Of a stretch of DNA of 64,000 nt, positions 1 to 64,000 are shown piece by piece. This DNA comes from a virus. The notes under the pieces were generated by a model. The model had not been told where the DNA came from and made no database searches. It saw nothing but the letters and a program-made list of their open reading frames with translations. Position numbers and translations under genes: made by a program. The stretch covers positions 1 through 64,000 of IMG/VR virus record IMGVR_UViG_3300044797_000318; one strand, given 5' to 3'. How positions within the stretch are numbered: the first letter of the stretch is position 1; the number at the start of each line of letters is the position of its first letter.

Positions 1-739
1 TGGTGTAATATGGATATACTGTCTTGGTAATAGGGATATATCCCCACAAATTCATTTGCGTAATCAAATAGTTAGCACGGTCGGGATCATAACCGAAAGC
101 CTTATCAATTTTTTCATTCATAACTTTTTCGGTAGAAATTTTAGCCGTTTGTGGATTTTTTTTCACAAACTCCACTATCGACTTATCCACATTGAATCCA
201 AGCTTACAAGCCAAATATATAATTCTAATAACTCTATTTCTATTTGATGTCAATGTTATTTCGGGAGACAAACAAGTATTTATTATCTTATTATCAATAT
301 CCTTGAAACCACGACCAATTGGATCTAATATTTTTTTGAGATCTAATGTCATCAATAGTGCATTACAAGTTAGATCTCTTGAATACATTTCTCGTTGCAT
401 ATTAGTAGGATTAGCAATCCCTATTTGATTAAGAATGTGATCGATATTGTGTACCATAAAATTAGAAGAAAAATCCATTTTAAGGCTACCCACAAAGATA
501 GTGCTATGCCCATCTTCCATAGTTTTTCTAGTTACATTATAGTTTTGACGGAGTTTGATGGCAAACTCTTGCGAGAGATAATCTACTGATTTATCACCGG
601 TGGTAATATCTAAATCAGCAATGTTTTCTAACTTACCCATACGCTTATCTCTGGGAACACCGCCACAAATCATTGGGGTAGAAGCACCAATTTCCGTAGC
701 TGTTTTTTGCAACACCCCTAATAATTCTCGAAGTTTCAT
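1..739 (-). CDS. tRNA nucleotidyltransferase / poly(A) polymerase family protein (class II NTase), 3' end runs off the window
   Basis: Not in the ORF track. Manual translation from ATG at 739 (SD AAGGA) is open to base 1: MKLRELLGVLQK...ICGGVPRDKRMG...ADLDITTG...YSRDLTCNALL...ILDPIGRGFKDI...RVIRIIY. Shows GGxxRD, DxD and RDxTxNA motifs. Confidence 0.85.
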   Translation of the reverse strand, partial: MKLRELLGVLQKTATEIGASTPMICGGVPRDKRMGKLENIADLDITTGDKSVDYLSQEFAIKLRQNYNVTRKTMEDGHSTIFVGSLKMDFSSNFMVHNIDHILNQIGIANPTNMQREMYSRDLTCNALLMTLDLKKILDPIGRGFKDIDNKIINTCLSPEITLTSNRNRVIRIIYLACKLGFNVDKSIVEFVKKNPQTAKISTEKVMNEKIDKAFGYDPDRANYLITQMNLWGYIPITKTVYPYYT

Positions 740-750
740 TTATCCTTTGT

Positions 751-2721
751 TTAGCCCAAAGGTCTGGCAACTGGTGGCCCTTTAACGGGAGCACCAGCTG
801 GTGGAGGTGGAGCCAATTCGCCCATTTCCACTTGGGGAGTTTCTTTCTTACCACCTTCCATTTCCACGTTTTCTTGATCTTTTCTCATCTGCTTGCGTGC
901 TTTTTCTTTGGCACTATCTTGCTCTAACTTACCTTTAATACCAGAGATTTCGGGAGAGTCGGATTTTGGACCGCCCTCTAAATCAATATCTTTGGTATTC
1001 ATAGAAGCACGTAGTTTAGAAAGTATTTCGTCCAAACGAGTAGACACATATTGATTAGAAGCTAAGGCGTTGCTAAGCGCTTCTGATAATTGTGGAAAGA
1101 AGGAGGACATACCTTTACCATTTAACATCATATCTACTCTAGATATTCTTCGTGGTATTTCTCTCACCTTAAATATCTTGGCGAGGCCTTCCAATTCCGC
1201 CACGATATCGGCGATAGTCACGCTGGAAAACATTTCATCCATCTTAGCATCAAATTCAGAAGTATCAGGTGGCGGAGTTTCCGCTCCTGATGGAGGAATA
1301 TCTTTTTCAGATACTTCCAACGGTTCATCATCGGGAGCACCGGAAGGAGCATCACCAGGTGCTTTTGGAGGAGGAAGATTGGCCATATTGCCTCGAGAAG
1401 GTGGTGGATTATCTGTAATTGGAACATCTTCTAAAACAGCAGGAGGAATGCCAGGAGGAGCCGCAGGAGGTATTGCTTGAGCTTCTGAGACCATCAGCTC
1501 TTCTTCTGGATCACTAACCTCCAAATGATCGAAGACTTCTAAATCATCGGCCTTGGACTCTTCCGTCTTATTACCTTCATTCATGTTTTCAATAAACTCG
1601 GAAATGCCCTTAGGTTGTGGCGCTTCTTGTGGCACCAAAGCAGGAGAAGATTCGGCGGTGCCAGTGGGCACATTGCCGCCACTCATAATAGCTGCTGCGG
1701 GCGGCTGATCTTTATTTTGATCTTGGCCTACTGGTGTATTGACATCAGGGACACCTGGAACAGTAGCGGGAGCACCACCTGGAGCACCTGGATTACCAGC
1801 GCCAGAGGGATCGGCTGGTGGTGCAGGAGGGGGCATAGCACCAGTATTAGTGGTGCCCGTAGCGTCTTGACCAGCTTGCCCTGGTGTTTGCGCTACTGAA
1901 TAAAGCATATTAGCAGCTTTGGTAAAACCCTTACGGCTAAGAACGTTAGCCTCACGCACAATCATATCCTCATAAAGGCGGGTAGAGACGCTCAATTTAT
2001 TGACGAGCTGAACTTTTTTCTTGAGACTATAAATGGCCTCCATTAGGTTTTCTAATTCAACTCCGGCAAATTGCTGCCCCTCAGGAGAACGCAAAAGTTT
2101 TTCCGCTGAGTCCAAACGTCCAATAATCTTTTGACGTTGTTTCTCAATCGTACTTCTCTTCTCTTCATGGCGTTCTGCCTCTTCACGCGCATCATTGACG
2201 GCATTGCCATCCACGGCGGGTTCGGGAGCTGGTTGTGCATCTGGTTTGATATGAAGGAAATAGCCCGGCTGTCCATTTTCATACCAGACTTGTGCAAATT
2301 TGTATTTCATATGAGAACCCTCTTCGTGGAACCTAAGCCAATTCAAGAAGTCATAGATTTCCATTTTCTTCCAACCTTGGGTGGCCTGGCGAACGGCATC
2401 CTTGAACTCAAATCCAGCTTTCTTTTTATAGTGGATATCCTTAACTGTTACCAACCACTTCTTCATATCGTGCTGGCCAGGAATATTAATATACTGGTCA
2501 TAATTAGGATAGGCCCTCTTGCCCTCAATGAAGGAACGAAATTCTGGCTTGAACTTACTATAATCAATACCATAATGATCAAAAAACTCCATCAATTTTT
2601 TGATCTTTTCGTCGGTTGATAATTCGAGTATCTTTTGATCCGAATATGGAGATACCACCTTCTCCAACTGTTTGTTAGAAGGTAAATCAATATTAGAGGG
2701 TTTGTGCTTGGTAGTTGTCAT
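751..2721 (-). CDS. Large Pro/Ala/Gly-rich hypothetical protein with coiled-coil segments
   Basis: 656-aa ORF; ATG overlaps the upstream stop; no family recognised. Confidence 0.8.
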   Translation of the reverse strand: MTTTKHKPSNIDLPSNKQLEKVVSPYSDQKILELSTDEKIKKLMEFFDHYGIDYSKFKPEFRSFIEGKRAYPNYDQYINIPGQHDMKKWLVTVKDIHYKKKAGFEFKDAVRQATQGWKKMEIYDFLNWLRFHEEGSHMKYKFAQVWYENGQPGYFLHIKPDAQPAPEPAVDGNAVNDAREEAERHEEKRSTIEKQRQKIIGRLDSAEKLLRSPEGQQFAGVELENLMEAIYSLKKKVQLVNKLSVSTRLYEDMIVREANVLSRKGFTKAANMLYSVAQTPGQAGQDATGTTNTGAMPPPAPPADPSGAGNPGAPGGAPATVPGVPDVNTPVGQDQNKDQPPAAAIMSGGNVPTGTAESSPALVPQEAPQPKGISEFIENMNEGNKTEESKADDLEVFDHLEVSDPEEELMVSEAQAIPPAAPPGIPPAVLEDVPITDNPPPSRGNMANLPPPKAPGDAPSGAPDDEPLEVSEKDIPPSGAETPPPDTSEFDAKMDEMFSSVTIADIVAELEGLAKIFKVREIPRRISRVDMMLNGKGMSSFFPQLSEALSNALASNQYVSTRLDEILSKLRASMNTKDIDLEGGPKSDSPEISGIKGKLEQDSAKEKARKQMRKDQENVEMEGGKKETPQVEMGELAPPPPAGAPVKGPPVARPLG

Positions 2722-3479
2722 TATTCGTTATTTAGCTTCTTATTAATAGTTTCATTGAGAAGTTTAGCTTCGGCCAATTTCATATCAGTATTAGGCAACT
2801 GATCTACAACAGGCTGTTTAAGCTTTGCCATTTTTTCGTTGAAAAGCTCCATAAATAACATAGAGCTTTCCAAGTCTAATTGGGACAAAACTTCTCGGAT
2901 TACATCATGAAATACCGAAATATGCTGATCCACTACTTGTAAAGTGACGTTGTGCTGTATCGTTAAGTCAGCTGGGCTCTCTGTAAATTTATAATATTTT
3001 TCCAATAGGCCACCGAACAACTCACCATATTCGATCAATACACGATCAATTTTAGTATTTATGTTGCGAGGGTCTTCTTGAATTTCGTCGAAAACTTGCC
3101 CTAAACGCGTTTCAATGGCGACACATAGATTTCTTACCATCTCGCGAATATCTATTTCTTTACCAGCCAATTCTAACATCTTACCCTTGTAAGTGGAATT
3201 GCCCTTAACTGCTAACTCTAATTGGTCTTCCGTACTGGTAGCTACAGCTTGCTTCGTTTTTCTAATATCATCCTGAATCATTTGATAAACATCTAAATAA
3301 TTATCTTGGAATGATTTGATAGACTTTTCGCCTATGACAAATTTGGCCTCGCTAACATTAGTATACTTGGCAGCCAGCCAATCGTGAATGTCTTTGGCAG
3401 CGTAACCAAGCACTAACTTTGCAATAAGCTCATCTTTATCGGGGTGATCAAGAATTTTTTTGAGTGCGTTTTTGTTCAT
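2721..3479 (-). CDS. Hypothetical helical protein
   Basis: 252-aa ORF coupled to the downstream gene (TAATG overlap). Confidence 0.8.
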   Translation of the reverse strand: MNKNALKKILDHPDKDELIAKLVLGYAAKDIHDWLAAKYTNVSEAKFVIGEKSIKSFQDNYLDVYQMIQDDIRKTKQAVATSTEDQLELAVKGNSTYKGKMLELAGKEIDIREMVRNLCVAIETRLGQVFDEIQEDPRNINTKIDRVLIEYGELFGGLLEKYYKFTESPADLTIQHNVTLQVVDQHISVFHDVIREVLSQLDLESSMLFMELFNEKMAKLKQPVVDQLPNTDMKLAEAKLLNETINKKLNNE

Positions 3480-3482
3480 CTT

Positions 3483-3594
3483 TATCCATTTGTTTAGCGA
3501 TCTTTTTCAATCACTTTCCACAAATAGATATGATATTATAGCCAGCTTGTTTGGTAATCTGCTCACGGACCAGAGTAGCTTGATAAAGATGCCC
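3483..3594 (-). pseudogene. Relic of a Vsr-like homing endonuclease C-terminus
   Basis: Intergenic DNA translates GHLYQATLVREQITKQAGYNIISI, then shifts frame; similar to GDLYKETIDREEMIRKHGYQIISIWE in 59996..60937. Confidence 0.65.
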
Positions 3595-3599
3595 GGGTA

Positions 3600-4313
3600 T
3601 TATTTATTGTAGCCGAGGCGCCCTTCTCTAGTGTCAAAAATTGCATGAAAGGGAATTTCCAAACCCATAGTTTGCTGCTCAACCGATCCACCAGGAACTT
3701 TATTACCATTATCTAGCGTATAGCCAGTTTCATAATTATATGTTTTCTTATCTAATTCACATTGAAACATATGTTCTCCAACTCTTGCCATTTGGGCGCC
3801 TGGATGATCGGGACATGTTCTCGTGCTAAGTGGAGCTTCTAGAATTTTATATTGCTTAGTGAAGCCGCTTTGTTCAATAGCTCTCTCTGCATCACCAATC
3901 TTGTGGTAATCTCGCAAAGTCTCACGGGGCTGCTCATACTTCTTTTTAAGTTCCACTACTCTTTGGTCTTGCAGATCTTTTCTTTCTGCATAGGCGTTGG
4001 GTGGAGCCGCAATAGTAAGTAATAATTCGTCTAGAACAGAAGCCATCTTTTTGAGTTGCGGATCATCAGAAGAATCAAAAGCGAAAGCCAAAGCAGCCGT
4101 CTCTTCAATGGATTCAGGGGTGAGCAAAGACTCAGCAGGAGGCTCGATAGCATCTACTTCATCGGCTGCTTTTTTCAAAAGAGCCGCTGCCAAGACACAA
4201 GATTCTGCCACTACTTGCATGCATTTTTCATCAGCTTCGGCAAGCAACATGGCTTCGTTATTTGGACTTTCTAGCCAAGCGGCCATAGCATTTAATAATT
4301 CAGCAGTTCTCAT
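3600..4313 (-). CDS. Hypothetical protein with C-terminal CxxH...C putative Zn site
   Basis: 237-aa ORF; TCPDHPG...FQCELD. Confidence 0.75.
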   Translation of the reverse strand: MRTAELLNAMAAWLESPNNEAMLLAEADEKCMQVVAESCVLAAALLKKAADEVDAIEPPAESLLTPESIEETAALAFAFDSSDDPQLKKMASVLDELLLTIAAPPNAYAERKDLQDQRVVELKKKYEQPRETLRDYHKIGDAERAIEQSGFTKQYKILEAPLSTRTCPDHPGAQMARVGEHMFQCELDKKTYNYETGYTLDNGNKVPGGSVEQQTMGLEIPFHAIFDTREGRLGYNK

Positions 4314-5188
4314 TTATGGTACCTTTCTAGGGTCAAGTCATTGTATTTATGAGCCATTTTGTGGTCCCAAGCTTCTCCCTCTTCTTCAAAAAGGTTTGGA
4401 TTAGCTGGTTGTTTTTCTGGGCTATTCTCTAATGCCGGAAGATTAGTCTTTTCTCGCTGATCAATCCAGTCTCTCATAGCTTTCGCTTCGACCGTAACAG
4501 CAGGACCATCCACAGGAACATGACCTCGAGAGATGGCATTAACCAAGGTAGTGATTTTACTTTTCATAACCGGATCAGACAAAAGCTGATACATAACATC
4601 CATATCATCTAGACGATATTGTTGGGCTGCCGGAGTTCTCATAAACATGAGGAGCTGCTCTTTGCTCAACTCTTTTCTTTGAGGTTCCAGTGGCCCGCCC
4701 TCTTGTCGTGTCTCGATACCACGCGGCAGTACCTGTTGAAGCAGTTTTAGTTGCTTGTCTAATAAAGAGGTAATGCGATGGAGAATCATCTCAAACTTAG
4801 ATTTAAGATGCTCGCGATAATTCCTCTCAGACTCCTTAGTAGCCCTTACAGAATTATGAATAAATTTTCTGACATCCTCTACTAGCTTAGCGTCATGAAC
4901 CATGCCTAACAAATTATTAACGCGAGTATATAATTGAGTATTGCTGTGATCGTCGATATTGGTAACGATATCACTAAAAATAATAATAAGTCTCTTAGAG
5001 AATGGCTCGCCCGCATTAGCTAGCATTTGAAGGACTGGCTCTTTGGCTGTTTCGGAATTGACATATAGTTTGTATGTCAAAAGCAGATCCTTCTTGACCT
5101 GACTAAGAATTTGGGCATTGGAGGCGGCATTAGCCACTAGCCCATATTTTAGCTCAAGAAGTTTTCCCAGTCTCTCTAATCCACTCAT
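4310..5188 (-). CDS. Hypothetical protein
   Basis: 292-aa ORF with ATGA overlap. Confidence 0.75.
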   Translation of the reverse strand: MSGLERLGKLLELKYGLVANAASNAQILSQVKKDLLLTYKLYVNSETAKEPVLQMLANAGEPFSKRLIIIFSDIVTNIDDHSNTQLYTRVNNLLGMVHDAKLVEDVRKFIHNSVRATKESERNYREHLKSKFEMILHRITSLLDKQLKLLQQVLPRGIETRQEGGPLEPQRKELSKEQLLMFMRTPAAQQYRLDDMDVMYQLLSDPVMKSKITTLVNAISRGHVPVDGPAVTVEAKAMRDWIDQREKTNLPALENSPEKQPANPNLFEEEGEAWDHKMAHKYNDLTLERYHK

Positions 5189-5191
5189 AGA

Positions 5192-6802
5192 TTACCCAAA
5201 AATCTTGGCGTTAATAAAGGTAGCCCCTTCGTAAGTATCGTCCATACCCTTACGGAACAATGGGCGGCAGTTTCCGTCTTTGTCTTGATACACTTTATTG
5301 ATTGGTAAGCCAGTATGCGTACAAACTGGGTATTCGCTGACAGCGCTCTTAATCATGTTGGAGCACTTGGTAGTAGCAACTTTCTTGCCAGACATACCGT
5401 CCATATAAATTTGGAAGGCGGTATCATAAGCTCTTTGGTCCCCACAATTAGCAAGAACATTGAGAGCATCTTCTGCCTTGGCGTGATTTCCCTCAGAGAT
5501 GGCGGCTTGTAGATTAGTAATCACTTCGCTTGGTTTGAGGGTAGACATAGTGGAAGCAACTGCGGCTACCTTAACATCATATTTGTTTTCACTAACTAAT
5601 TGATTGATGCCGGCCCTATCGAAAGTGGCTAGTGAACCATTGCAAAGTAGGACGGAAGGCTTGGATAATTTCTTGTCAGCTGATACCTTGACTGGAACGG
5701 TAAAAGCTACCTTGCCAGTATCTAAGGAAACGCCGTAAAAAATAGTGTGTTCATCATTACCGGTAACCACTACTTGTGGTAGAGAAAATCCGAAAGATTG
5801 TAGTTCACGAGTGATATGGTTTCTACCAGCAGTAACCACTTCTGGACCAAATTTGAAAGAGGCAAGTCCCTTAGGGCTGGTAAATTCCTTTTCGAAAGAA
5901 ATGAATTCGTCAGACTTGGGAAGTTGAACGTCTGGCTTAGCAGCAGCCTCCACTTTGAGACCGAGCCAACAATCTGCTTGACCGGCAAAATCAGACTTCC
6001 CTTGACGAGTGGCATTGAGTCGAGTCAAAGCTAATTCAGCTGCGCTAACTTCACGCTTACTGCTAGTAGCAGCGGTAAGAGCGGTAAGAATATCAGTGGC
6101 CCCTACTTTGGTTTTGGTACCGGCTTGCTGAGTTAGATAGGCCTTGATAGCAGCGTGATTGAGATCTTCAGGGCCGGTATTGCCCATAAAAACTTCGGGG
6201 TCAACTACATCGGTCTTGACCACTTCTACAGGAACATAGAAACTAGTTACGCCCTTAGGAGTATCGTAGTCGGCTTTGATAACGATGAACTTATCATTGC
6301 CGTCACTAACGGAAAGTTGGATAGGGCGAAGATTCCAGGCCTCCAAAGTAGAGCCCACCGATTTCAAAGCCTTGTTAGCCATAGGTTGGGAGTACATCTT
6401 GAGGGGAGCGTGCTTGTCGAAAACACTTTCCAAAGCATTAGCTAATACTTGATCGCCTACTTCGTAGGGATTGTTTTGTAGAGCTACGTCATGCTGGTAA
6501 GTGGTCACCGATGGCTCAGCCACAGTCTCACCCAACTCATCCTGAAATAATTCGGCAAATTTGGTGCCGGAAGAATGAAGTTTGTGATAAAGAGTTTTGA
6601 AATCAGCTCTGCGAATGAAGGTGGTATTATGGCCAGCCATATCAGAAATGACTCTGGCCATATTGCCGAGAGTTTTATCCTGTGGATAGGCTACAACACA
6701 CTTGGCCAATTTAGCTGCCAAAAGTGGTGTGGCAAGCCTTTCATTATCCCCTACCGTCTTTGCTAGAGAACCTACCAGTTGTTGTATTTTTTCGAAGCTC
6801 AT
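5192..6802 (-). CDS. Hypothetical protein, possibly virion-associated
   Basis: 536-aa ORF, SD AGGTG; two similar ...FYVPVEV / ...FTVPVKV segments; Cys/His cluster near the C-terminus. Confidence 0.8.
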   Translation of the reverse strand: MSFEKIQQLVGSLAKTVGDNERLATPLLAAKLAKCVVAYPQDKTLGNMARVISDMAGHNTTFIRRADFKTLYHKLHSSGTKFAELFQDELGETVAEPSVTTYQHDVALQNNPYEVGDQVLANALESVFDKHAPLKMYSQPMANKALKSVGSTLEAWNLRPIQLSVSDGNDKFIVIKADYDTPKGVTSFYVPVEVVKTDVVDPEVFMGNTGPEDLNHAAIKAYLTQQAGTKTKVGATDILTALTAATSSKREVSAAELALTRLNATRQGKSDFAGQADCWLGLKVEAAAKPDVQLPKSDEFISFEKEFTSPKGLASFKFGPEVVTAGRNHITRELQSFGFSLPQVVVTGNDEHTIFYGVSLDTGKVAFTVPVKVSADKKLSKPSVLLCNGSLATFDRAGINQLVSENKYDVKVAAVASTMSTLKPSEVITNLQAAISEGNHAKAEDALNVLANCGDQRAYDTAFQIYMDGMSGKKVATTKCSNMIKSAVSEYPVCTHTGLPINKVYQDKDGNCRPLFRKGMDDTYEGATFINAKIFG

Positions 6803-22935: not shown

Positions 22936-24183
22936 TTAATCAATTAATTTAACATTCTTCATAATATAATCCATAGTATGTTCATCTCTAATACGCGAGA
23001 ACAATATTTGCAAATATCCGGTACGGTTCATTTGTTGGATTACCTCATCCACACTGGCCGTTACCTGAGTATTAGCTAAATTCTTTTTCACAATATCAAA
23101 TACTTCTTGATCGGTCAATTGTGTTTCTGGAGTAGTTTCTCTAATCTGATCTAAGACTAAAGACAGAGTGACGTTTTTCTCTGCCATTCCCACGAATTTT
23201 TCTTTATCCGTATCCGACATAGTAGCCCAATCTAACTGAGCTTGTTGCGCCAAATATTGCGCCTCTGATAATGACATCCAGGTAGGAACTGATACTTGAG
23301 TGTCTGCTACTAATCTGCGGGACACCGCCTCTTGAATTTGAGTTCTATTAAAACTAGAAACGCGAGCAAAAGCGGCTTGACCCACAAACTCTTGCAGTTC
23401 ATGGAAATCATTCTTGCCCATCTTTTTTGCCATCTCATCATCTAGGGCACAAGGAATTGTTTTGGAGCCAGTGGCCAATATCACTGTAAAGTGAATAGTC
23501 TTGCCAGACAAAGATGGTAATCCACCTTCTGGGGCTACATAATCAAACTCACGAGTAGTACCCATCAGCATACCCAATAGGTTGTTGTCAAACTCCGCAA
23601 GGGGATTTTTCCCCACCGAGATCATTTCCCCTTTAGCACAGAGGGAATCCACTTTCTGACCATCCACAGTAGCCTCGTAATCAACGATAACATTATCGCC
23701 CGTCTGAACGAAATCAGTATCGCTATATGGCACTGCATCTCCCAAGCGCTCTCGTAGCTCCTGCATCATCTTCTCTGCCACTTCCGTGGTAGTGTGTTTT
23801 TCGTGTGGCTTAGGAATTTCTAAATTTTTCCAATCCAACAACACAAATTCTGGTTTGGTGTGAACCTCAAATTCGGTTGAAAACTTTCCGCCATCAAGCA
23901 ATAGATTATTAAATTTTGGCGCTCCGTGTGGACGAATTTTTTTTTCAAAAAGCGTATTATGGTATGCTTCCTCTGCAAGAGCTCTTTTGAGAGATTCATC
24001 AATTTGTTTCTTATATTCAATTTTAATTGAATCCATAGTAGCGTGTCCTGGACGGAAACCTTTTACAGGTGCCTTCTTAAAAGCATTAAGTACCTCTTCT
24101 TTTTTATTACCAATTTCTATAAAATTGGCTTCATAATGCACCAATAGTTTGCAGGGCTCCATCTCTGTAATATCTATTTTCAT
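22936..24183 (-). CDS. tig: Trigger factor
   Basis: VKGFRPG ribosome-binding loop, FKBP-like GDNVIVDYEA...FDNNLLGM, LDDEMAK. Confidence 0.9.
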   Translation of the reverse strand: MKIDITEMEPCKLLVHYEANFIEIGNKKEEVLNAFKKAPVKGFRPGHATMDSIKIEYKKQIDESLKRALAEEAYHNTLFEKKIRPHGAPKFNNLLLDGGKFSTEFEVHTKPEFVLLDWKNLEIPKPHEKHTTTEVAEKMMQELRERLGDAVPYSDTDFVQTGDNVIVDYEATVDGQKVDSLCAKGEMISVGKNPLAEFDNNLLGMLMGTTREFDYVAPEGGLPSLSGKTIHFTVILATGSKTIPCALDDEMAKKMGKNDFHELQEFVGQAAFARVSSFNRTQIQEAVSRRLVADTQVSVPTWMSLSEAQYLAQQAQLDWATMSDTDKEKFVGMAEKNVTLSLVLDQIRETTPETQLTDQEVFDIVKKNLANTQVTASVDEVIQQMNRTGYLQILFSRIRDEHTMDYIMKNVKLID

Positions 24184-26276: not shown

Positions 26277-26828
26277 AAATTATTTTTTGATGCAAAAACA
26301 TCATAAAATATAGTCAAATCTTGAACAATCAACTACCCAATTATCAGCATGAAAATAAAGTGGTGATTGATTGGCGTTATGAAATTGACGATATTTTTAA
26401 AATAAAAATTATCCAAAATTCCAATATCGTACTGATACGTAATATAATCTAAACGAACTAAAATATGATAATCTATATTTTTAATACTCTTTTGCGTATA
26501 TGTATCATAAGTTATGACATATAATTTATTATATGTGCCACTAGTATTTTCTATTTTTGTTGTTTTAACATCATAATTTTTATGAGCAATTTGATCAACC
26601 AAATCAATGCCATTATCTTCATTAGTTGCCATTATTTCAAAAGACGGGCTGATAATATTTAATCCAAGAAAAGTATTAAGGTCTTCGTATGCAATACATT
26701 CGCCAATTTTCCCGCGAAAAGTATCAATATAAACATTTTGCTTTACAAAATTCCTCACATTGTTTAATTAACGAAGAATTAGTATATATGCGACCATATA
26801 TTGGATTAAATTTTGATTCCATTTTCAT
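26277..26828 (-). pseudogene. Frameshifted PD-(D/E)xK restriction-endonuclease-like gene
   Basis: Core GKIGE...DNGIDL...YDVKT. The N-terminus (MKMESKF...IKQCEEF) and C-terminus (YFHADNWVV) lie in other frames. Very AT-rich; directly upstream of the MTase. Confidence 0.55.
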
Positions 26829-40573: not shown

Positions 40574-40960
40574 TTATTCTGAATAACGATTGCGCTTAGT
40601 AGTTCGCTCTCTACGATTCTTGGCGTGTTCCGAATGTCGGCACTCACCTTTACTACACATTTCCATTTGCTTGCGCTTGGATTCGTTAATCTTTCTCCTA
40701 CGTTTGTCGGAGGGCTTCTCGTACGATTGCTTTTCTTTATATGCGGAAAGAACTCTTTCCTTTTGCACGAGGGCTCGGAAAGCTCTGAGAGCTTTATCGA
40801 AATTGTTGCCGTAGACTTTGACTTCAAGCGGTTGAGCTTGAATAGCCTCTCCTGGGCCTACTCTATGGTCGTTGACTGCGACTGGCTGCGTTTCACCTCC
40901 CCTCGGTGCCTTTTTGAAGTTTCTTCTATTTCTTTTATTTCTTTTATTTTGGTCTTTCAT
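40574..40960 (-). CDS. rpsU: Ribosomal protein bS21 with basic N- and C-terminal extensions
   Basis: VKVYGNNFDKALRAF...KEKQSYEKPSDKRRRK. Confidence 0.85.
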   Translation of the reverse strand: MKDQNKRNKRNRRNFKKAPRGGETQPVAVNDHRVGPGEAIQAQPLEVKVYGNNFDKALRAFRALVQKERVLSAYKEKQSYEKPSDKRRRKINESKRKQMEMCSKGECRHSEHAKNRRERTTKRNRYSE

Positions 40961-40975
40961 AATCGAAAACCCGTT

Positions 40976-42337
40976 TTAACCTTTAAAATATTTGTCCATG
41001 TTCATTGCGCCGGTATTCAATAGATTTTTATCCTTGACTAGTCGGTTAAGTGCGTTTTGTATATCCTTTTCTGTTGGAGCCTTCCTATCATTAGCTAAGG
41101 CTTCAAACATAGAAGAGATATACAATTCCTTTAAGTAAGCATAAGAAAACTCGTACTTAGCAGCATATTTGGCAAGTTCCTTTCCTTTTTTAAGAGAAAT
41201 AAGATTGCCAAACCATCTTTTAAGATATATATGAGCCATTTCTGCGTTTGGTAGAGGAATCTCAAATTTTCTATCAAATCTAGACGGTCTATCAGTAATA
41301 TTAGACTTTAATTTTTTAACTTCATTAGCAGTAGCTATAACCAGCAAACCATTCTTTGCCGAAATACCATCCATTAAATTAAGGAAAGAAGAGGGGTCCA
41401 CACTCTTTTCGAGTAGAGAATCCAAATCCTCAAAATAAAGTAAAGAAGGGCTTTGTTCTTCTGCATAAGCAAAAGCCTCACGCACTGCTTCGTCATTAGC
41501 ACCTGCCACAATGGTGACTGGCTTAAAATTGTAAGCCGACATAATTGTTCTAATAATGGAAGTTTTGCCATTGCCCGGTTTTCCATACAAAAGAATACCA
41601 CGCTTCCAAGGAATTTTGTTTTCCAAATAGAAATCCTGGGAGGCTAAGAAATTCTCAACTAAGTTTTTAAGTTCTGTCTTGATTTCTTCTGGTAGAAATA
41701 AATCGGCCCAAGTATGATCCTTGGTGTAGGGCAAATCTTCTCCTTCCACTACACGAATATGCAGATTACTACGATCTCTTTCCACTACCCATTTATCAAA
41801 ATCATTACGAAGTTTAACATATCCTTCATAGTTCTTGCTAGAACATATAATGAAAAAACTAATTTCATCTTCGTTCTGATTTCCCTTATGAAATAAAGCG
41901 GCATGTAGAAATTCCACTCCTCTCGCCTTAATCAAAAACACACCCTGAGCAAAAAACTTCTCAAAATCGTGCTCGGTCTTCCAAGAGATAAGCGAATCTT
42001 TATATAGGCATTTAATGGCAATCTTACGCTCTTCGCAGAACTGTAAGAATTGTCCATCTATAATAATTCTATTATGAACGAATTTATTAAGATCATGATG
42101 ATCATTTAACGCATTTTTATATTGTCTCAATGTCCAATCCATTAAATCAATAAAATTAGCGGGTGGACGATTTTCAGTTAGTGAATGTGGATCGTGCTCT
42201 AAACCAGTCAATCTAGCCAAGGATAAATTTTCTTGGGTTTCCATGTCTTCGGGGGCTAAATATTGTTCTTTTTGTGTGGTCATGCTTTGATAACTCGTTC
42301 TTTCAATAAAATTAGGTACGTCGATTATCGACTCCAC
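40976..42337 (-). CDS. AAA+ ATPase
   Basis: WKRGILLYGKPGNGKTS, YFEDLD, FLNLMDG, ATAN and RPSRFDRK; start uncertain. Confidence 0.9.
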   Translation of the reverse strand: MESIIDVPNFIERTSYQSMTTQKEQYLAPEDMETQENLSLARLTGLEHDPHSLTENRPPANFIDLMDWTLRQYKNALNDHHDLNKFVHNRIIIDGQFLQFCEERKIAIKCLYKDSLISWKTEHDFEKFFAQGVFLIKARGVEFLHAALFHKGNQNEDEISFFIICSSKNYEGYVKLRNDFDKWVVERDRSNLHIRVVEGEDLPYTKDHTWADLFLPEEIKTELKNLVENFLASQDFYLENKIPWKRGILLYGKPGNGKTSIIRTIMSAYNFKPVTIVAGANDEAVREAFAYAEEQSPSLLYFEDLDSLLEKSVDPSSFLNLMDGISAKNGLLVIATANEVKKLKSNITDRPSRFDRKFEIPLPNAEMAHIYLKRWFGNLISLKKGKELAKYAAKYEFSYAYLKELYISSMFEALANDRKAPTEKDIQNALNRLVKDKNLLNTGAMNMDKYFKG

Positions 42338-58144: not shown

Positions 58145-58900
58145 TTACAGTTTGTTGCGGAAATAATAGTCATTGAGATAGGCAATGGACTCGTGTGTGC
58201 CTGCGTCTGACCATAAACCTTCGGTAAAAGAAAAGGTTAGTTTACCTTCTCTATGATAAGCTTGCAGAATATCGGTAATTTCATATTCACCTCGAGCACT
58301 GGGCTTGAGGTCTTGGAAAAATCTGAAAAATTGACTATCGAACATATAGCAACCAGTAATAGCATAGTTATCATTATTAATATCTAACACTTGTGGCTTT
58401 TCTTCAATCTTGATAATTTGTCGCGCTTGATTGAGAGTAGCTACCCCAAATCTTTTGAGCTCAGGATGTCGATGCAAAACAACGGAAGCACACGTATTCC
58501 ACTTATAATCGTCTCCATATTCTTTTTCTTTATCATAAAAGAAAGAAACCGGTCTTTCAAATATATTGTCTCCCAACACAACTGCAAATTGGTCATTGGG
58601 CCAATCTACAAATCTTTTGCATAGATTGATAGCCTGCGCAATCCCTTTGGCCTCTCCTTGATACACATAATTGACGTTCATTCCAAAGGCGTGTCCGTCC
58701 TTCAAGTGATCCACTACTTGTGAGAAGTGGCTGCCCCCGAGAACAACCGTTAAATTTTCTACACCCATTTGTTTGAGCGTCTGGATAGGGTAATCGAGAA
58801 TGAACTTTCCATCCACTCCCAAGAGATGTTTATTGACCACATGAGTCAGTGGATATAATCTGGTACCGTTGCCACCTGCCAAAATGATGCCGTTCTTCAT
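58145..58900 (-). CDS. rmlA: Glucose-1-phosphate thymidylyltransferase
   Basis: GIILAGGNGTRLYPLT, LGDNIF, EEKP, SARGEYEITD and WSDAGT. Confidence 0.93.
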   Translation of the reverse strand: MKNGIILAGGNGTRLYPLTHVVNKHLLGVDGKFILDYPIQTLKQMGVENLTVVLGGSHFSQVVDHLKDGHAFGMNVNYVYQGEAKGIAQAINLCKRFVDWPNDQFAVVLGDNIFERPVSFFYDKEKEYGDDYKWNTCASVVLHRHPELKRFGVATLNQARQIIKIEEKPQVLDINNDNYAITGCYMFDSQFFRFFQDLKPSARGEYEITDILQAYHREGKLTFSFTEGLWSDAGTHESIAYLNDYYFRNKL

Positions 58901-58906
58901 AATACC

Positions 58907-59371
58907 TTATTTATTAAAATTGGAAATTTCTAGCTTAATGTATTTCAGCTTTTCCAAATGATGTCCTAAGAGAATTTGGTATTGTGTGTTTAGCATTTCG
59001 GAGACGGCAGGTGGATTGAAATGAACTCCTTCGTCTTTGATCATAAATTCTCGACCACGCTCCAATAGTGCCTGGGAGGATAGTGCGTACAGAACAGCGC
59101 CTTCTACCAACACCTCGGCAAAACAATCGACAAAACGACTATTCTCCAAAGTAAAATTTGTGAATTTTGGAATAGCGTTGAATTCGGAAACCGCTAAATC
59201 TATAAAAGACTCCAAAGTTTCTTTGCTATAAATATCGCAATCCACATAAATAACATTGCCGAGCTGATCGCTCGACTTAGCCTTACCTGAACTATTGAGC
59301 CTGGTTTTTACCGAAGCGATTAGACTATCTAAATTACGTTGGCCTTCACTTGAAATATTTTTGTTTTTCAT
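58907..59371 (-). CDS. Hypothetical protein, possibly head-tail connector-like
   Basis: 154 aa; weak pattern only. Confidence 0.6.
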   Translation of the reverse strand: MKNKNISSEGQRNLDSLIASVKTRLNSSGKAKSSDQLGNVIYVDCDIYSKETLESFIDLAVSEFNAIPKFTNFTLENSRFVDCFAEVLVEGAVLYALSSQALLERGREFMIKDEGVHFNPPAVSEMLNTQYQILLGHHLEKLKYIKLEISNFNK

Positions 59372-59388
59372 GCCAACTTATATATCAC

Positions 59389-59463
59389 TGGTATCTCTGG
59401 CAGGACTCGAACCTGCATAAAACTCGTTAGGAACAAGGTGCCCTTCCATTAGACCACAGAGAC
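59389..59463 (-). tRNA. tRNA-Arg(CCT)
   Basis: GTCTCTG/CAGAGAT acceptor stem, anticodon loop TT-CCT-AA, GGTTCGAGTCC T-arm, encoded CCA. Confidence 0.85.
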
Positions 59464-59472
59464 ATCTGCCTA

Positions 59473-60012
59473 TTATGCCTGTTTTTTAGTAGGAGAAACG
59501 ACCACGCTCATAAATTTGCCTTCCATATTAATTTGTGGATTGGGAGCAATCATCCCATCTAAACGCTGTAAAATCCACTCAATCTTTTCACGACCCACAT
59601 TAAGATGAACCACTTCTCTGCCACGAAAGCGCACGGTAAGTTTCGTCCTATTACCTTCTTCTAAAAATTCCTTAGCTTTAACTAATTTATGTTCAAGGTC
59701 TCCAATATCAGTATTCGGTCTAAATGTAATTTCTTTTAGCTCTTGCACTTGCTGATTTTTCTTTTGTTCTTGTGCTTTTTTCTTCTCTTCATATTTCATC
59801 TTGCCATAATTTATAATTCTTACAACTGGTGGCAATGCGCGAGGATTTATTTCTACTAAATCCAAATTTTCATCCTTAGCTAATTTAATAGCGTCTATGG
59901 TATTCATTATACCACCATTATCGCCATTAGACAAAATTACCCTAACTTGTGGAACTCTAATGTTTCCATTAACACGTTGCCTATATTGTTGCTGATTATT
60001 TTGTTGAGCCAA
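59473..60012 (-). CDS. infC: Translation initiation factor IF3
   Basis: RVNGNIRVPQVRVI, LDLVEI, PPVVRIINYGK, KEITFRP and RFRGRE; TTG start after GGAG. Confidence 0.95.
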   Translation of the reverse strand: MAQQNNQQQYRQRVNGNIRVPQVRVILSNGDNGGIMNTIDAIKLAKDENLDLVEINPRALPPVVRIINYGKMKYEEKKKAQEQKKNQQVQELKEITFRPNTDIGDLEHKLVKAKEFLEEGNRTKLTVRFRGREVVHLNVGREKIEWILQRLDGMIAPNPQINMEGKFMSVVVSPTKKQA

Positions 60013-60937
60013 TTTTCAATCTCCTATTATTCCATTCTTGTTCCCAGATAGAAATTATCTGGTATCCGTGTTTTCTAATCATCTCTTCACGATCTATTGT
60101 TTCTTTGTAAAGATCGCCGTATAATCTTTTATTGGAAGGATTAGTATCTGATGATTTGAAAATCTGTGGATTACCGTGCCAATAATCGCCGTAAAACTCA
60201 TAAACAGTGTTAGTGTCTGGATCAAATGCATCCACTATTATGTATGATGAGCCCAATACTATCTTTACTTGCCTGTGCTTATCATCATTTACAATACCCA
60301 AACTATTTAACCATTCTTCTTCTTTTTCAGAAAAGAGCGGGCGGCAAATAGAACATCCACTTCCTTGGAGATGGGCGCGAGCCATTTGCCAAAATGACCC
60401 GTGTTTTGGGCATATAATTTTTACTTTATCATTAGATAATTTATATTCAACTTTTGAATAATCATAATAATTATTATGAATTAAGTTTGCTCTAAATATA
60501 AACTCACCCGTATATGATTTTTTGGATTCTGAAATGGCTACAAACCCACATTTATGACATCCACTTCCACGCAAATGTTTATTGGGCATTTGTAAAAATA
60601 CACCATGTATTGGACATATAATTTTAACTTTTTCATTAGTTCTTGTGTAGATTACGGCAGAATAGTCGTATTTAAAATTATGAATTTCATTAGCCTTATC
60701 TACAAACTCCTCTTTTATTGAGGAATTAAGTTTTGAAAAATGTTCATTGCGACACAAACGGCATCCTTGCCCTTGCAAATGATTGGTCGCTAATTGCCAA
60801 AAAGATCCGTGCTCTGGACAAATAATCTCTATTTTTTCTAAGGAGCCCTTGTATTCACTCTTCGAATAATCATATGCTATAATATGTTTTGAAGTCGCTT
60901 TGCGCACAAAGTCTTCGGTAGATAGCTTAGTTCTCAA
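59996..60937 (-). CDS. Homing endonuclease-like protein: three YDYS...IICPxHG repeats plus a Vsr-like domain
   Basis: Repeats, then VDAFD...YEFYGDYWHG...IWE. Confidence 0.85.
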   Translation of the reverse strand: MRTKLSTEDFVRKATSKHIIAYDYSKSEYKGSLEKIEIICPEHGSFWQLATNHLQGQGCRLCRNEHFSKLNSSIKEEFVDKANEIHNFKYDYSAVIYTRTNEKVKIICPIHGVFLQMPNKHLRGSGCHKCGFVAISESKKSYTGEFIFRANLIHNNYYDYSKVEYKLSNDKVKIICPKHGSFWQMARAHLQGSGCSICRPLFSEKEEEWLNSLGIVNDDKHRQVKIVLGSSYIIVDAFDPDTNTVYEFYGDYWHGNPQIFKSSDTNPSNKRLYGDLYKETIDREEMIRKHGYQIISIWEQEWNNRRLKIGSTK

Positions 60938-60955
60938 TGTTCCACTCGTTCAATT

Positions 60956-61399
60956 TTATTTAACATCAATACCATAATCACTCAAAATAGAAATGTCAAG
61001 CGTCCATTGTTTTTTAGAACGTTTCGCCCAAATCTTAAAAGATTGTTGAATATGTTGCTCGGCTTGTTTATTAGTCCAACCATTGACTTTCATCAAATGT
61101 TGTTGCGCCCGTTTCTCTTTGCCCTGCACCCGTGCCAAACCAAAATGACATACCTGATGACAACTTTTGCATAGAGCTATTAGCCCAACTAATTTTTGAA
61201 TTGACTTGCCTTCATCATAAGACCAGCGCTCATGACAATCGTGCGCCTCGCCTTGGCAAATTTGACAAATATCATAGGCTTGTGAGCGAACTTGTTTTGA
61301 GAGAGAAGCCCATTGGGCACGAGTCAAAATAGCCCTGACATTGGAGCCGAATGCAGTGGCTGGCACTAAATCTAATGAAAGAAGAATATTGTTATTCAA
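60956..61399 (-). CDS. HNH-like nuclease
   Basis: LDLVP, CQIC, CHERWSY and LCKSCHQVCH. Confidence 0.75.
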   Translation of the reverse strand: MNNNILLSLDLVPATAFGSNVRAILTRAQWASLSKQVRSQAYDICQICQGEAHDCHERWSYDEGKSIQKLVGLIALCKSCHQVCHFGLARVQGKEKRAQQHLMKVNGWTNKQAEQHIQQSFKIWAKRSKKQWTLDISILSDYGIDVK

Positions 61400-61562
61400 A
61401 TTTGCTTAGCTTATAGGAAAGAGAATACAGTTCATTTTGCAAGACAACGGTAGAAATGGTCTTGCCATTGGCATCTGCCATTTTGGATAGGCCGGTCTTG
61501 TGCCTATTTTCTAACTCCTCTCGGAGTTCTTTCATTCTTGCTTGAATTTCGGATCGAGTCAT
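61392..61562 (-). CDS. Small hypothetical protein (56 aa)
   Basis: Manual translation MTRSEIQARMKELREELENRHK...LSKFE; below the ORF-track cutoff. Confidence 0.65.
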   Translation of the reverse strand: MTRSEIQARMKELREELENRHKTGLSKMADANGKTISTVVLQNELYSLSYKLSKFE

Positions 61563-61583
61563 CTTGCCTATATATCGTTTTAT

Positions 61584-61658
61584 TGGTGGGTTGTATGGGG
61601 GTCGAACCCATGACGTAGGATTTTAGAGATCCCCGCTCTACCACTGAGCTAACAACCC
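61584..61658 (-). tRNA. Amber suppressor tRNA (anticodon CTA), Lys-like body
   Basis: GGGTTGT TA GCTC AGTGGTA GAGC G GGGAT CT-CTA-AA ATCCT ACGTC ATGGG TTCGACC CCCAT ACAACCC A CCA; canonical cloverleaf. Confidence 0.92.
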
Positions 61659-61665
61659 ACTCTTC

Positions 61666-61821
61666 TTATTCTGTTTTATCGGCAGACTCAGGAACAAGAG
61701 GAGTAACGGACTCCATCAATTCCTTCTTTCGTTTTTCCATCATTTCATCCCAGGCTCGGATACCAAAACCAACAACAGTACCACACACTAATGACAATAA
61801 AAATAACTCAAATAACCACAT
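61666..61821 (-). CDS. Small single-pass membrane protein (51 aa)
   Basis: MWLFELFLLSLVCGTVVGFGIRAWDEMMEKRKK...; GGAG upstream. Confidence 0.65.
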   Translation of the reverse strand: MWLFELFLLSLVCGTVVGFGIRAWDEMMEKRKKELMESVTPLVPESADKTE

Positions 61822-61833
61822 ATTAATTCTCCA

Positions 61834-62802
61834 TTATGAAAGTTGCATCATTCGATCAATAGAAACACGAGCCCTGTTCATCAAATCTTTCGACATAATG
61901 ATCTGGGGCGACAGATCCCTCAAAGAAAGATATACCTTTTCCAAGGTATTCTTCCTCATAAACGGACACTCATTACAAGCGCAGCTGGCTTCGGGAGGGG
62001 CCGGTATGAAAGTTTTATGCGGAGCTGCTTTCTGCATCTGGTGCAAAATACCCGACTCGGTAGCCACAATAAATTCGTTGAATGGGCTTTCCACAGCAAA
62101 TTTGAGAATGCCCGTAGTGGAAGAGATATGATCCGCCATTTTGAGAATAGGTTCTTCACATTCGGGGTGGGCCAAAATCTTAGCGTTGGGATATCTTGTC
62201 TTCAAGCCAATCAGTTTGCGTTCGCTGAAAGTCTCATGAACAATACAGCTTCCTTGCCACAGGGTCATGGGTCGACCCGTTTTCTTGACCAAGTAATTTC
62301 CTAAGTTCTTATCCGGGGCAAAGAGAATGTTCTTGTCACCCGGAATGGCATTGACAATCTTCTCGGCATTGGAAGAGGTGCAAATGTAATCGGAGAGGGC
62401 CTTGACTTCCGCTGAGCAATTGATGTAGCTAATGACCACCGAATTGGGATGCAGACTTTTCCAAGCGGCAAATTTATCGGCAGGACAACCATCCGCCAAA
62501 GAACAACCAGCTTCCAAATCAGGTAGCACTACTGTTTTTTGTGGGCTGAGGATTTTAGCTGTCTCGGCCATAAAATGGACACCGGCAAAACATATGACAT
62601 CGGCATTGGTCTTGGCAGCTTGTTGAGAAAGTTGCAAGCTATCCCCAATGAAATCGGCCACATCTTGGATTTCGGATTCTTGGTAATAATGGGCTAAGAT
62701 AACGGCATTGCGTTCTTTTTTGAGCTTAGCAATCTCTTTTTCTAAATCGAGAGAAGGATCGATATGTTTATCATTCTTCATCAGCGATAAGTGTGTTGTC
62801 AT
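61834..62802 (-). CDS. nadA: Quinolinate synthase
   Basis: [50 protein letters not shown] and CPFM. Confidence 0.97.
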
Positions 62803-62954
62803 CGTACTTCTCCAAGAATTGCTCTATTGCTGCTTGTAAATCTTCTTCTGATTTATAATATTCTTCATTAGACACATTTGCCCCATCAGACCAACAAGCC
62901 CCCAAATATCCGGCCCGATATGCCTGAATGACAAGTATCGCAAGTTCTTTTTCA

Positions 62955-63272
62955 TTATTCTTTTTCTTTCAACAACTTTTTGATATCGTTGGACAGGATA
63001 TTATGAGCTGCCGCATCTTCCCAGCGGGCCATTTCCCAAGCAATGCATTGATCCAAGTTCAATCTGATTTCTACTTTGACTTCGGAAAGAACTAAATGCA
63101 GCAGCTTGAACTGCTTCGATTTTTCCAACAGATTGTCATAGGTCAGTCTTTCGTTGAGATATTCTCGGGGCAGCTCTCCGAAGAATGCTACATACTTCTC
63201 CTGCGAGATTTTCCAGGGGTGCTTCTTGCGAACATTATCCGCAATGACGTGTAGGAGTTCGTGCTTATTCAT
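62955..63272 (-). CDS. Hypothetical protein
   Basis: 105-aa ORF. Confidence 0.65.
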   Translation of the reverse strand: MNKHELLHVIADNVRKKHPWKISQEKYVAFFGELPREYLNERLTYDNLLEKSKQFKLLHLVLSEVKVEIRLNLDQCIAWEMARWEDAAAHNILSNDIKKLLKEKE

Positions 63273-63275
63273 AAA

Positions 63276-63500
63276 TTACCAGAAAGCCTTATTGCGTTTA
63301 TATCTCTCCGCTTGCTCATTAGTATAATAAACATCATCAATGGCCCAGGTTTGAGAAGGTATATCCAAAATAACATTACAATTATCGCAACCCAACTGTG
63401 AGGCAAATGTAGTAATTTTATCTTCATCATATCGATATGTAATCACAAACATAAGGCCATTACATTTCGGACAATATCTGGGACAATCGGAAATTTTCAT
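63276..63500 (-). CDS. Small Zn-ribbon protein ending RNKAFW
   Basis: CPKC...CDNC; starts immediately after the tRNA CCA. Confidence 0.65.
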   Translation of the reverse strand: MKISDCPRYCPKCNGLMFVITYRYDEDKITTFASQLGCDNCNVILDIPSQTWAIDDVYYTNEQAERYKRNKAFW

Positions 63501-63501
63501 T

Positions 63502-63575
63502 TGGCGCCTCCAGCGAATTCTGACATCGCACGGTCCTTTTTAGAGAAGGATGCTCTTCCTTTGAGCTATGGAGGC
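63502..63575 (-). tRNA. Second amber (CTA) tRNA with a non-canonical T-arm
   Basis: GCCTCCA TA GCTC AAAGGAA GAGC A TCCTT CT-CTA-AA AAGGA CCGT GCGAT GTCAGAA TTCGC TGGAGGC G CCA. Acceptor, D and anticodon stems pair perfectly; the T-loop lacks TTCGA. Confidence 0.85.
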
Positions 63576-63579
63576 ATTA

Positions 63580-63930
63580 TTATTTAATATTTCTGAGTGC
63601 CAATTGCAATTTGCTACACAACTTTTTGGACTTGGGGCCCGGGGACAAAGCAATGGCAGTAATCTGATCCTCTATATCCGGCTCCCTAAAAATAGAGAAA
63701 TGAATATCATTGGCAGCCGCTTGTTCAATTAATTTAGTTAGTTCCTGCTCATCAGCCACTGACAAGAGGCCTAAATAATTAGATTGCTTATACCAATGCT
63801 CGGCATACTCTGGATGCTCGAACACAAATTGGATACCTGCGTGTAGTGATTGGACGGCCTGATAACCCTCTTCCAAGTCTTGGCGAGTAATAACATAAAG
63901 TTTATCGCCTTCTTTGATCTATAAACTCAT
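63580..63930 (-). CDS. PTH2-family peptidyl-tRNA hydrolase-like protein with an in-frame TAG at codon 4
   Basis: GGAG-7nt-ATG AGT TTA TAG ATC AAA GAA GGC GAT AAA CTT TAT GTT ATT ACT CGC CAA GAC TTG = MSL*IKEGDKLYVITRQDLEEGYQAVQSLHA...FREPD...TAIAL...LQL. Confidence 0.82.
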
Positions 63931-64000
63931 TTTTTATCTCCAAATAATTTTTGGCAGATCGCTCTGCCTCGTTTGTCGATTTGCTTCCACTTGATCTTGA
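63927..64000 (-). CDS. 3' end of an unidentified upstream gene coupled to the Pth-like gene
   Basis: Open frame KIKWKQIDKRGRAICQKLFGDKK-TGA; its TGA overlaps the ATG at 63930 (ATGA). Confidence 0.7.
   Translation of the reverse strand, partial: KIKWKQIDKRGRAICQKLFGDKK

Follow-up and report, generated by a model that had tools for sequence, protein, structure and literature searches.

A conserved in-frame TAG at the start of a PTH2-family gene and a linked amber tRNA in a standard-code huge phage and its relatives

Introduction

In sections of their preprint, Borges et al. (10.1101/2021.08.26.457843) propose that phages come to recode TAG in the order of TAG depletion, suppressor tRNA and then late-gene recoding, and report release factor 2 (RF2) in the TAG-recoded Lak and Agate phages. 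Among phages of standard code, the Xanthomonas jumbo phage XacN1 is described in parts of its report (PMC5852040) as carrying two tRNAs with anticodon CUA, hereafter tRNA(CUA), together with 18 amber stops, a peptidyl-tRNA hydrolase and a Thg1-like gene, and its authors state there that they could not identify targets of the suppressors; a 2026 survey of jumbo phages, in the portion of its text available, treats suppressors in recoded genomes only. Here we analyze a 64,000-nt stretch of viral DNA (the window, bases 1-64000 of the 138,671-bp IMG/VR record IMGVR_UViG_3300044797_000318, which we call G000 and which is rated 32% complete), in which the gene for a PTH2-family peptidyl-tRNA hydrolase carries an in-frame TAG as its fourth codon and lies close to a tRNA(CUA). 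On the conservation and linkage described below, we lean towards the view that the phage tRNA(CUA) decodes this early UAG, such that PTH2 would be made only when the suppressor is active. Suppressor tRNAs of standard-code phages have had no known target, and the PTH2 amber codon offers a concrete, testable candidate.

The window has a G+C (GC) content of 39% and holds nearly all of its genes on the minus strand. Using its NadA protein we retrieved nine related IMG/VR loci (69-86% identity); the related phages are 430-450 kb in size, G000 being a fragment of a huge phage, and two of the relatives are near-complete (G001, 432,844 bp, 97% complete; G002, 446,541 bp, 100% complete).

Results

A PTH2-family gene with TAG as its fourth codon

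The elements at the center of this analysis are the following.

63580-63930, minus strand: PTH2-family peptidyl-tRNA hydrolase gene, ending in TAA (Pfam PF01981)
63919-63921, minus strand: in-frame TAG, codon 4 of PTH2, followed by ATC (Ile)
63938-63941, minus strand: GGAG, a Shine-Dalgarno (SD)-like motif 7 nt upstream of the PTH2 ATG
61834-62802, minus strand: nadA (quinolinate synthase), between PTH2 and tRNA(CUA) (Pfam PF02445, E 1e-121)
61584-61658, minus strand: amber suppressor tRNA, anticodon CUA, CCA encoded (ARAGORN; Rfam RF00005, 66.3 bits, full model)

The PTH2 assignment comes from a Pfam match to PF01981 over residues 10-102 (E 1.1e-8; 35.7 bits against a cut-off of 23) and from the family profile, which matches the solved archaeal Pth2 structures 1wn2 and 2zv3 at E 2e-6. 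Record G000 contains no canonical Pth (PF01195), and the window gene presumably encodes the peptidyl-tRNA hydrolase that its family name implies. The TAG that the initial annotation had placed at codon 4 of a Pth gene is thus real and belongs to this PTH2-family gene, the start of which reads GGAG-7 nt-ATG AGT TTA TAG ATC AAA GAA GGC GAT AAA, with the ATG overlapping the TGA of the upstream gene (ATGA). Past the TAG, the first ATG, GTG or TTG lies 15 codons downstream, and initiation there would cost the protein the first conserved strand of its domain; of the 14 residues between the TAG and that codon, 10 are the same in G001 and G002. The leader is shared by all 8 related loci in which PTH2 was matched (43-72% protein identity), as M-[S/C]-L-TAG or M-S-TAG followed by [I/V]-K-x-G-D-K-L-Y. 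The sequence features of programmed read-through are therefore present here, namely a conserved in-frame stop, coding conservation directly after it and no alternative start, although a start codon does follow the TAG in the Mycobacterium phages and in one IMG/VR locus (L160).

The window tRNA(CUA) sits just downstream of nadA, has a 7-nt anticodon loop, CUCUAAA, and recurs next to nadA/PTH2 in 8 of the 9 related loci. It is the only one: where the initial annotation counted two amber tRNAs, neither ARAGORN nor Rfam (at the gathering threshold and at E<=1) gave a second in the window, and the slot upstream of nadA contains no tRNA there. In two relatives (L002 and L009) there are two tRNA(CUA), one on each side of nadA. 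What had been counted as the second is probably the other tRNA of the window, which is kept in 8 of the 9 related loci, none being present in the examined stretch of L003 and L010.

59389-59463, minus strand: tRNA-Arg(CCU), loop UUCCUAA (ARAGORN, Rfam)
62824-62955, minus strand: 43-codon open reading frame (ORF) in frame with nadA, ending in TAG (62824-62826), in the slot of the relatives' second tRNA(CUA)

This last ORF had also been flagged as a TAG-ended frame before nadA; it exists, shows no protein-level conservation in the relatives, and is probably non-coding.

TAG leaders across phage PTH2 genes

Searching with a PTH2 domain profile yielded 51 IMG/VR loci, and tblastn for PTH2 in INPHARED yielded 243 records (206 Mycobacterium phages, 15 Lak phages, 7 uncultured huge phages and, in smaller numbers, others that include Aeromonas, Stenotrophomonas, Xanthomonas, Tenacibaculum, Mycolicibacterium and Escherichia phages). 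We inspected the 51 IMG/VR loci, five huge-phage records (462-735 kb), four Mycobacterium phages, Lak-B7 and Xoo-sp13. The IMG/VR loci, the five huge-phage records, three of the Mycobacterium phages and the window collapsed to 52 distinct leader regions, with the fourth Mycobacterium phage, Cane17, outside this count. A TAG leader, defined as a start codon, 0-3 sense codons and an in-frame TAG directly before the PTH2 domain, was found in 40 of the 52 regions and no leader in 12, while leaders with only TAA or only TGA numbered zero (one locus, L159, was flagged as TGA by the script and reads ATG TCG TAG). Lak-B7 and Xoo-sp13 showed no TAG leader in the stretch examined. The lineages that bear the leader span GC contents from 23% to 65% and PTH2 identities down to 43%.

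Homologues that lack the TAG begin M-A-T-I-K, M-I-E, M-M-K or V-T-T-I-V, and the TAG therefore occupies an ordinary codon 2-4 position. Across 39 leaders, the codon that follows it was ATT (19), GTT (7), ATC (3), AAC (3) or GTG (3), with ATA, ATG, CTG and GAA occurring once each; judged from these codons, the position appears mostly to hold a conserved Ile/Val residue and looks unlike a start. The base after the TAG was a purine in 38 of the 39, and a 3' purine favours amber suppression in E. coli. An SD-like motif lay no more than 16 nt from the start in 30 of these leaders.

The cultured Mycobacterium phages (Ceeclamvirinae) Bxz1, Cane17, HyRo and ScoobyDoobyDoo resemble the window in three respects: their annotated 'peptidyl tRNA hydrolase' is a PTH2 homologue (40-42% identity), a tRNA(CUA) lies near it, there 180-300 nt after it, and an in-frame TAG (RTG-TAG) directly precedes the coding region. 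They differ in that no sense codon separates RTG from TAG and that the GTG after the TAG is the annotated start. Their tRNA(CUA) is annotated as tRNA-OTHER or tRNA-Pyl, and that of HyRo (L184 2105-2178) is missing from the annotation of its record; it is unrelated to the tRNA(CUA) that the close relative Bxz1 carries in the same place after PTH2 (L178 3657-3729).

Linkage of the leader to tRNA(CUA)

Tabulating leader and tRNA over 49 distinct PTH2 rows gave the following counts.

TAG leader: tRNA(CUA) within about 3-4 kb in 31 rows, none in the flank in 6
No leader: tRNA(CUA) within about 3-4 kb in 3 rows, none in the flank in 9

The two are associated (Fisher p = 3e-4, a value that ignores kinship among the rows), and the PTH2 tree calls for a minimum of 6 changes of state in the leader and 10 in the tRNA. 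The PTH2-adjacent tRNA(CUA) amount to 52 genes with 45 distinct sequences, falling into 28 clusters at 80% identity, one with a long variable arm. Here the anticodon is kept and the tRNA body is not, a pattern that fits a need to read UAG where the inserted residue is unimportant.

The standard code is in use, with few in-frame TAGs

Coding coverage of G000 is 0.931 under code 11 and also under code 15, and code 15 adds at most 1.6 points of coverage in any of 8 records. The genes for DnaE (1180 aa), an SbcC-like AAA_23 protein (735 aa) and TopA (599 aa), all three borne out by Pfam, are uninterrupted under code 11, as the initial annotation had noted in concluding that TAG is not a routine sense codon. 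Traits of code 15 are present in the form of tRNA(CUA) in the window and RF2 in relatives G001 and G002. Pervasive TAG recoding was nevertheless rejected, given the equal coverage, the real genes that TAG still ends and the near-absence of in-frame TAG; the phage reads the standard code (table 11).

We then scanned for in-frame TAG by comparing G000, G001 and G002 mutually with TAG read as X. The sole mid-gene TAG spanned by homologous alignment was in an HTH/LAGLIDADG-like gene (G000 109198-109884, plus strand), at a position where two G002 homologues have Trp within the motif GCMLYWAEG. The gene is homing-endonuclease-like, and its TAG is either a fresh nonsense mutation or another site of read-through. 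The gene sits inside the tRNA cluster. The remaining in-frame matches of the scan were antisense to the gene for transfer-messenger RNA (tmRNA). No other leader of the form ATG, few codons, TAG comparable to that of PTH2 emerged in the three records, the scans being noisy. A pair of orthologues (G001 178184-178540 and G002 195423-195797) has an in-frame TAG 10 codons ahead of the first canonical start, with conserved residues flanking it on both sides (NIN..R-TAG-NGFER), which could be a second leader of the PTH2 kind or only a conserved 5' untranslated region.

TAG is a rare but legitimate stop

Stop codons were counted on ORFs called mechanically, longest first (greedy), at 60 aa or more and with little overlap; the call is untrained, so small and spurious ORFs are included.

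Window, all ORFs (n=91): TAA 64, TGA 25, TAG 2
Rest of record, all ORFs (n=107): TAA 56, TGA 41, TAG 10
Window, ORFs conserved in one or more related records (n=79): TAA 57, TGA 22, TAG 0
Rest of record, ORFs conserved in one or more related records (n=85): TAA 43, TGA 34, TAG 8

The near-absence of TAG stops reported by the initial annotation is borne out within the window, where TAG ends 2 of 91 ORFs, both doubtful, and none of the 79 that are conserved. For conserved ORFs the window differs from the rest of the record (Fisher p = 0.0068, in a comparison chosen post hoc). As a triplet, TAG is not shunned: it accounts for 808 of the 3285 stop triplets that lie out of frame inside window ORFs. 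The two TAG-ended ORFs, and the gene that one of them shadows, are these.

40625-41023, plus strand: TAG-ended ORF, doubtful, an antisense shadow of the S21 gene
40574-40960, minus strand: ribosomal protein S21 homologue (Pfam PF01165)
26333-26758, minus strand: the only plausible TAG-ended ORF of the window, an ORFan of 141 aa with a GTG start

The latter has no Pfam family and no homologue among 7 related records. TAG stops had also been ascribed to broken genes, of which we found none inside the window.

Over the whole record TAG ends 12 of 199 ORFs (6.0%), and in the T4 control it ends 8 of 77 ORFs by the same method and 7 of 86 annotated coding sequences (CDS). The rest of the record (10/107) is thus near normal when set against T4, and the proposal that UAG has been freed for regulation fails as a genome-wide statement, while it survives for one gene, PTH2, with its conserved TAG linked to tRNA(CUA). 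Genes ended by TAG outside the window encode Thg1-like, T4-type RNA ligase, YpsA/SLOG, NADAR, DenV-like glycosylase and NAMPT proteins; their orthologues in G001 and G002 stop at the same residue, mostly via TAA or TGA, and the TAGs there are therefore true stops. Taken together, TAG serves as a genuine stop that is seldom used: none of the window's conserved core genes has it, and its share is about 9% in the more variable remainder of the record.

Extension of genes by TAG read-through was likewise limited, as only 2 of the 12 TAG-ended ORFs continue for more than 32 codons past the TAG, namely NAMPT (112 codons) and the HTH/LAGLIDADG-like gene. We rejected the NAMPT case, since the extension looks like a separate same-frame gene and the G002 NAMPT orthologue ends at the G000 residue. 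The NAMPT gene ends in TAG-GGA-GAT-TAG and is followed in the same frame by a 110-codon ORF with CxxC pairs.

To survey the clade we took ORFs conserved in at least 3 other records as core genes in seven records, with TAG stops as follows.

G000 3/115; G001 6/142; G002 2/160; G004 3/149
G005 3/141; G006 2/115; G007 0/45

Pooled, this is 19 of 867 (2.2%), and record-specific ORFs, a class inflated by spurious ORFs, end in TAG in 6-17%. Within G002 140-380 kb, TAG ends none of 234 ORFs with a match in G000 or G001. Record G003 was considered as a suppressor-less relative and rejected, having only about 22 genes in common; kept as a method control (GC 55%), it showed TAG at 114 of 517 ORFs. Around PTH2 loci, TAG ends 31 of 385 ORFs where the module of leader and tRNA is present and 22 of 102 where it is absent, but the comparison is confounded by the GC of the two sets (0.38 vs 0.51). 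The scarcity of TAG in core genes is probably the product of a TAA preference of AT-rich genomes and selection against suppressor read-through. Confidence in the second component is modest because Bxz1 combines tRNA(CUA) with about 18% TAG stops: unlike in the window, TAG stops are common there (28 of 155 annotated CDS), and a suppressor alone therefore does not purge them.

Two stretches, G001 240-340 kb and G002 1-140 kb, stand apart in GC (0.38-0.59 vs about 0.30-0.35 elsewhere), in having few genes common to the relatives and in having many TAG stops. Both records are labelled 'provirus' in IMG/VR, and these stretches may be host flanks, islands or assembly chimeras.

Other translation and NAD genes of the window and its relatives

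The cluster that holds PTH2 and tRNA(CUA) includes further translation genes, and others lie elsewhere.

59473-60012, minus strand: translation initiation factor IF-3 homologue (Pfam IF3_N and IF3_C), in the same translation-gene cluster
59996-60937, minus strand: 313-aa protein with repeated treble-clef/zinc-ribbon motifs (DUF4379, DUF723), between tRNA(CUA) and IF3
22936-24183, minus strand: trigger-factor homologue (Pfam Trigger_N and Trigger_C), conserved in G001
G000 65196-65545, minus strand: tmRNA, just past the window, adjoining a tRNA-Thr set and the PTH2/tRNA(CUA)/IF3 cluster

The 313-aa protein is probably a homing-endonuclease-like insert, and trigger factor is an unusual chaperone for a phage. 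The tmRNA tag peptide is ANDNAAPMALAA in G000 and ANDNAFAPLALAA, ANDNAFVPMAQAA and ADEFAFAEAA in relatives. The whole record has 14 tRNAs in addition to the tmRNA. Pfam also recognizes an SbcD-like phosphoesterase accompanying the SbcC-like protein and, besides the trigger-factor, S21, IF-3 and NadA homologues already described, sugar-nucleotide enzymes; DnaE is less than 35% identical to any of 50,697 INPHARED records. NAD metabolism is represented by nadA in the window and by the NAMPT (record 135399-136790) and NADAR (record 117774-118205) genes.

RF2 and aminoacyl-tRNA synthetase genes, which the initial annotation had raised as possible companions elsewhere in the genome, do occur in relatives. 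In both G001 and G002 the RF2 gene runs uninterrupted and encodes a class-I release factor that bears the SPF and GGQ motifs, and no RF-1 family member was found in five other records, G003 among them, nor in the 32% of a genome that G000 represents. Class I synthetases are sporadic, with one of class Ic in G001, one of class Ib in G002 and two in G005.

A proposed amber switch and its alternatives

On the reading we lean towards, ribosomes would initiate at the SD-ATG and meet the UAG one to three codons later, where either host release factor 1 (RF1) would terminate, giving no enzyme, or the phage amber tRNA would decode the codon, giving PTH2. The output of PTH2 would in this way report, and depend on, amber-suppressor activity, and the UAG would act as a gene-specific switch. 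For this, tRNA(CUA) would have to be charged and to read the PTH2 UAG. As for why PTH2 might be tied to suppression, read-through or other translation interference would be expected to raise the amount of stalled or dropped-off peptidyl-tRNA.

Several observations weigh against decoding by a linked suppressor. Six leader-bearing rows lack tRNA(CUA) in the flank and three rows have tRNA(CUA) without a leader, and the tree contains only 6 phylogenetically independent pairs, 1 of them on well-supported branches, too few for a test. The leader is present in LR745206, LR756504, G008 and G010, which show no CUA anticodon among the matches listed (61, 39, 27 and 45 tRNAs, respectively, by the Rfam tRNA model, with 25 further Rfam matches falling outside these counts), and G010 has a completeness rating of 100%, so the leader does occur where no phage suppressor is detected. 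These four genomes have 9-16% TAG stops in sampled tRNA-rich regions. No phage tRNA is more than 75% identical to the window tRNA(CUA). In the Mycobacterium phages the SD spacing is best for the GTG, so PTH2 may start after the TAG there, and Bxz1, despite its tRNA(CUA), uses TAG to stop 17 of 91 and 11 of 64 annotated CDS. Nor do TAG stops in suppressor-bearing records have significantly nearer back-up stops, the next TAA or TGA lying a median of 8.5 codons away, compared with 10-12 for other stops (p = 0.16).

The suppressor-less genomes and the Mycobacterium layout are better explained by the main competitor, which needs no read-through and which we judge unlikely overall. Here ATG-x-x-TAG would be an upstream ORF of 2-4 codons, at which termination or peptidyl-tRNA drop-off would control re-initiation at the next codon (AUU, AUC, GUU or GUG); UAG would have been chosen as an RF1-only codon, such that PTH2 senses RF1, and tRNA(CUA) would be linked for another reason. 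Very short ORFs cause peptidyl-tRNA drop-off, which Pth resolves. The persistence of the leader in the four genomes just named speaks for such an arrangement, as do the GTG that follows the TAG with good SD spacing in the Mycobacterium phages and the ATG that follows it in L160, and the exclusive use of TAG (40 leaders, none with only TAA or TGA) would also suit an RF1-specific sensor. It fares worse on the non-start codons and the strict frame: 4 leaders have AAC or GAA after the TAG and another 7 have GTT, codons that do not usually start translation, the frame is always kept, TAG-less homologues have the Ile/Val codon at the same place within the protein, and the window SD motif is 16 nt from the TAG-proximal codon as against 7 nt from the ATG.

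The genome-wide data bear on two further alternatives. An action of the suppressor mainly on the host or host defence, through read-through of host UAG, with RF2, tmRNA, IF3, S21 and PTH2 helping the phage to cope, would have core genes avoid TAG to be spared and the PTH2 TAG tie a clean-up enzyme to suppression. The TAG-poor core genes (19 of 867 pooled, 0 of 79 in the window), the RF2 of both near-complete relatives and the broad translation investment in tmRNA, IF3, S21 and trigger factor agree with this, but Bxz1 with its 18% TAG stops, the lack of any excess of back-up stops and the genuine phage genes still ended by TAG (NAMPT, RNA ligase, Thg1-like) do not, and we consider it rather improbable. 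More improbable still is a transitional stage on the way towards or back from code 15, in which AT pressure lost the TAG stops, a suppressor was gained and in-frame TAGs have not spread. The initial annotation had offered an intermediate stage of this sort, and it does match the model seen in part in Borges et al. (10.1101/2021.08.26.457843), including the RF2 of TAG-recoded Lak and Agate phages, and could draw as well on the extra in-frame TAG at a Trp position in the HTH/LAGLIDADG-like gene (record 109198-109884). What tells against transition is that many diverged lineages share the same state, down to 43% PTH2 identity and from 23% to 65% GC, such that it looks stable; that the coverage gained with code 15 never exceeds 1.6 points in 8 records; and that in-frame TAG is confined to one gene and one position, G001 and G002 having no large number of them.

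Discussion

If decoding of the PTH2 UAG by tRNA(CUA) holds beyond the window, the pair may form a portable module that is widespread among jumbo and huge phages and extends to cultured phages of Mycobacterium smegmatis, made up of an amber-gated PTH2 (codon 2-5) and a linked suppressor of almost any backbone, with UAG as a private switch for a single gene, by which a ribosome clean-up enzyme is tied to the suppressor activity of the phage itself. We advance this broader form tentatively; were it true, the suppressor tRNAs of standard-code phages would at last have a named target. The PTH2 case would then show a stop codon serving as a gene-specific switch with no change of genetic code, and, for the evolution of the code, that a suppressor can be stably held for one gene while TAG terminates elsewhere. 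It also poses an annotation problem, as gene callers begin PTH2 after the TAG or name the tRNA(CUA) tRNA-OTHER or tRNA-Pyl.

Compared with the code-15 Lak and crAss-like phages, the window and its relatives are alike in having tRNA(CUA), RF2 (in the relatives), scarce TAG stops and a large genome rich in translation genes; they are unlike them in that TAG is not a routine sense codon and still ends real genes, in-frame TAG being limited to one gene. XacN1, compared here by the description in parts of its report only, differs in having its suppressors in the tRNA arrays of its terminal repeats. In the full-text literature searched, a scope that leaves most subscription journals and supplementary files outside, we found nothing that ties a suppressor tRNA to an amber codon within the Pth or PTH2 gene of a phage.

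A parallel in kind is prfB, the gene for RF2, which is expressed through a +1 frameshift at an early in-frame UGA that is sensed by the gene's own product. Both have an early in-frame stop in the gene for a translation factor, with passage set by a termination or decoding factor. The PTH2 gene departs from prfB in that the frame is kept and that the presumed effector is a separate, linked tRNA. Set beside these systems, the pairing of an amber-gated PTH2 with an amber tRNA looks like a form of programmed recoding that has not been described before.

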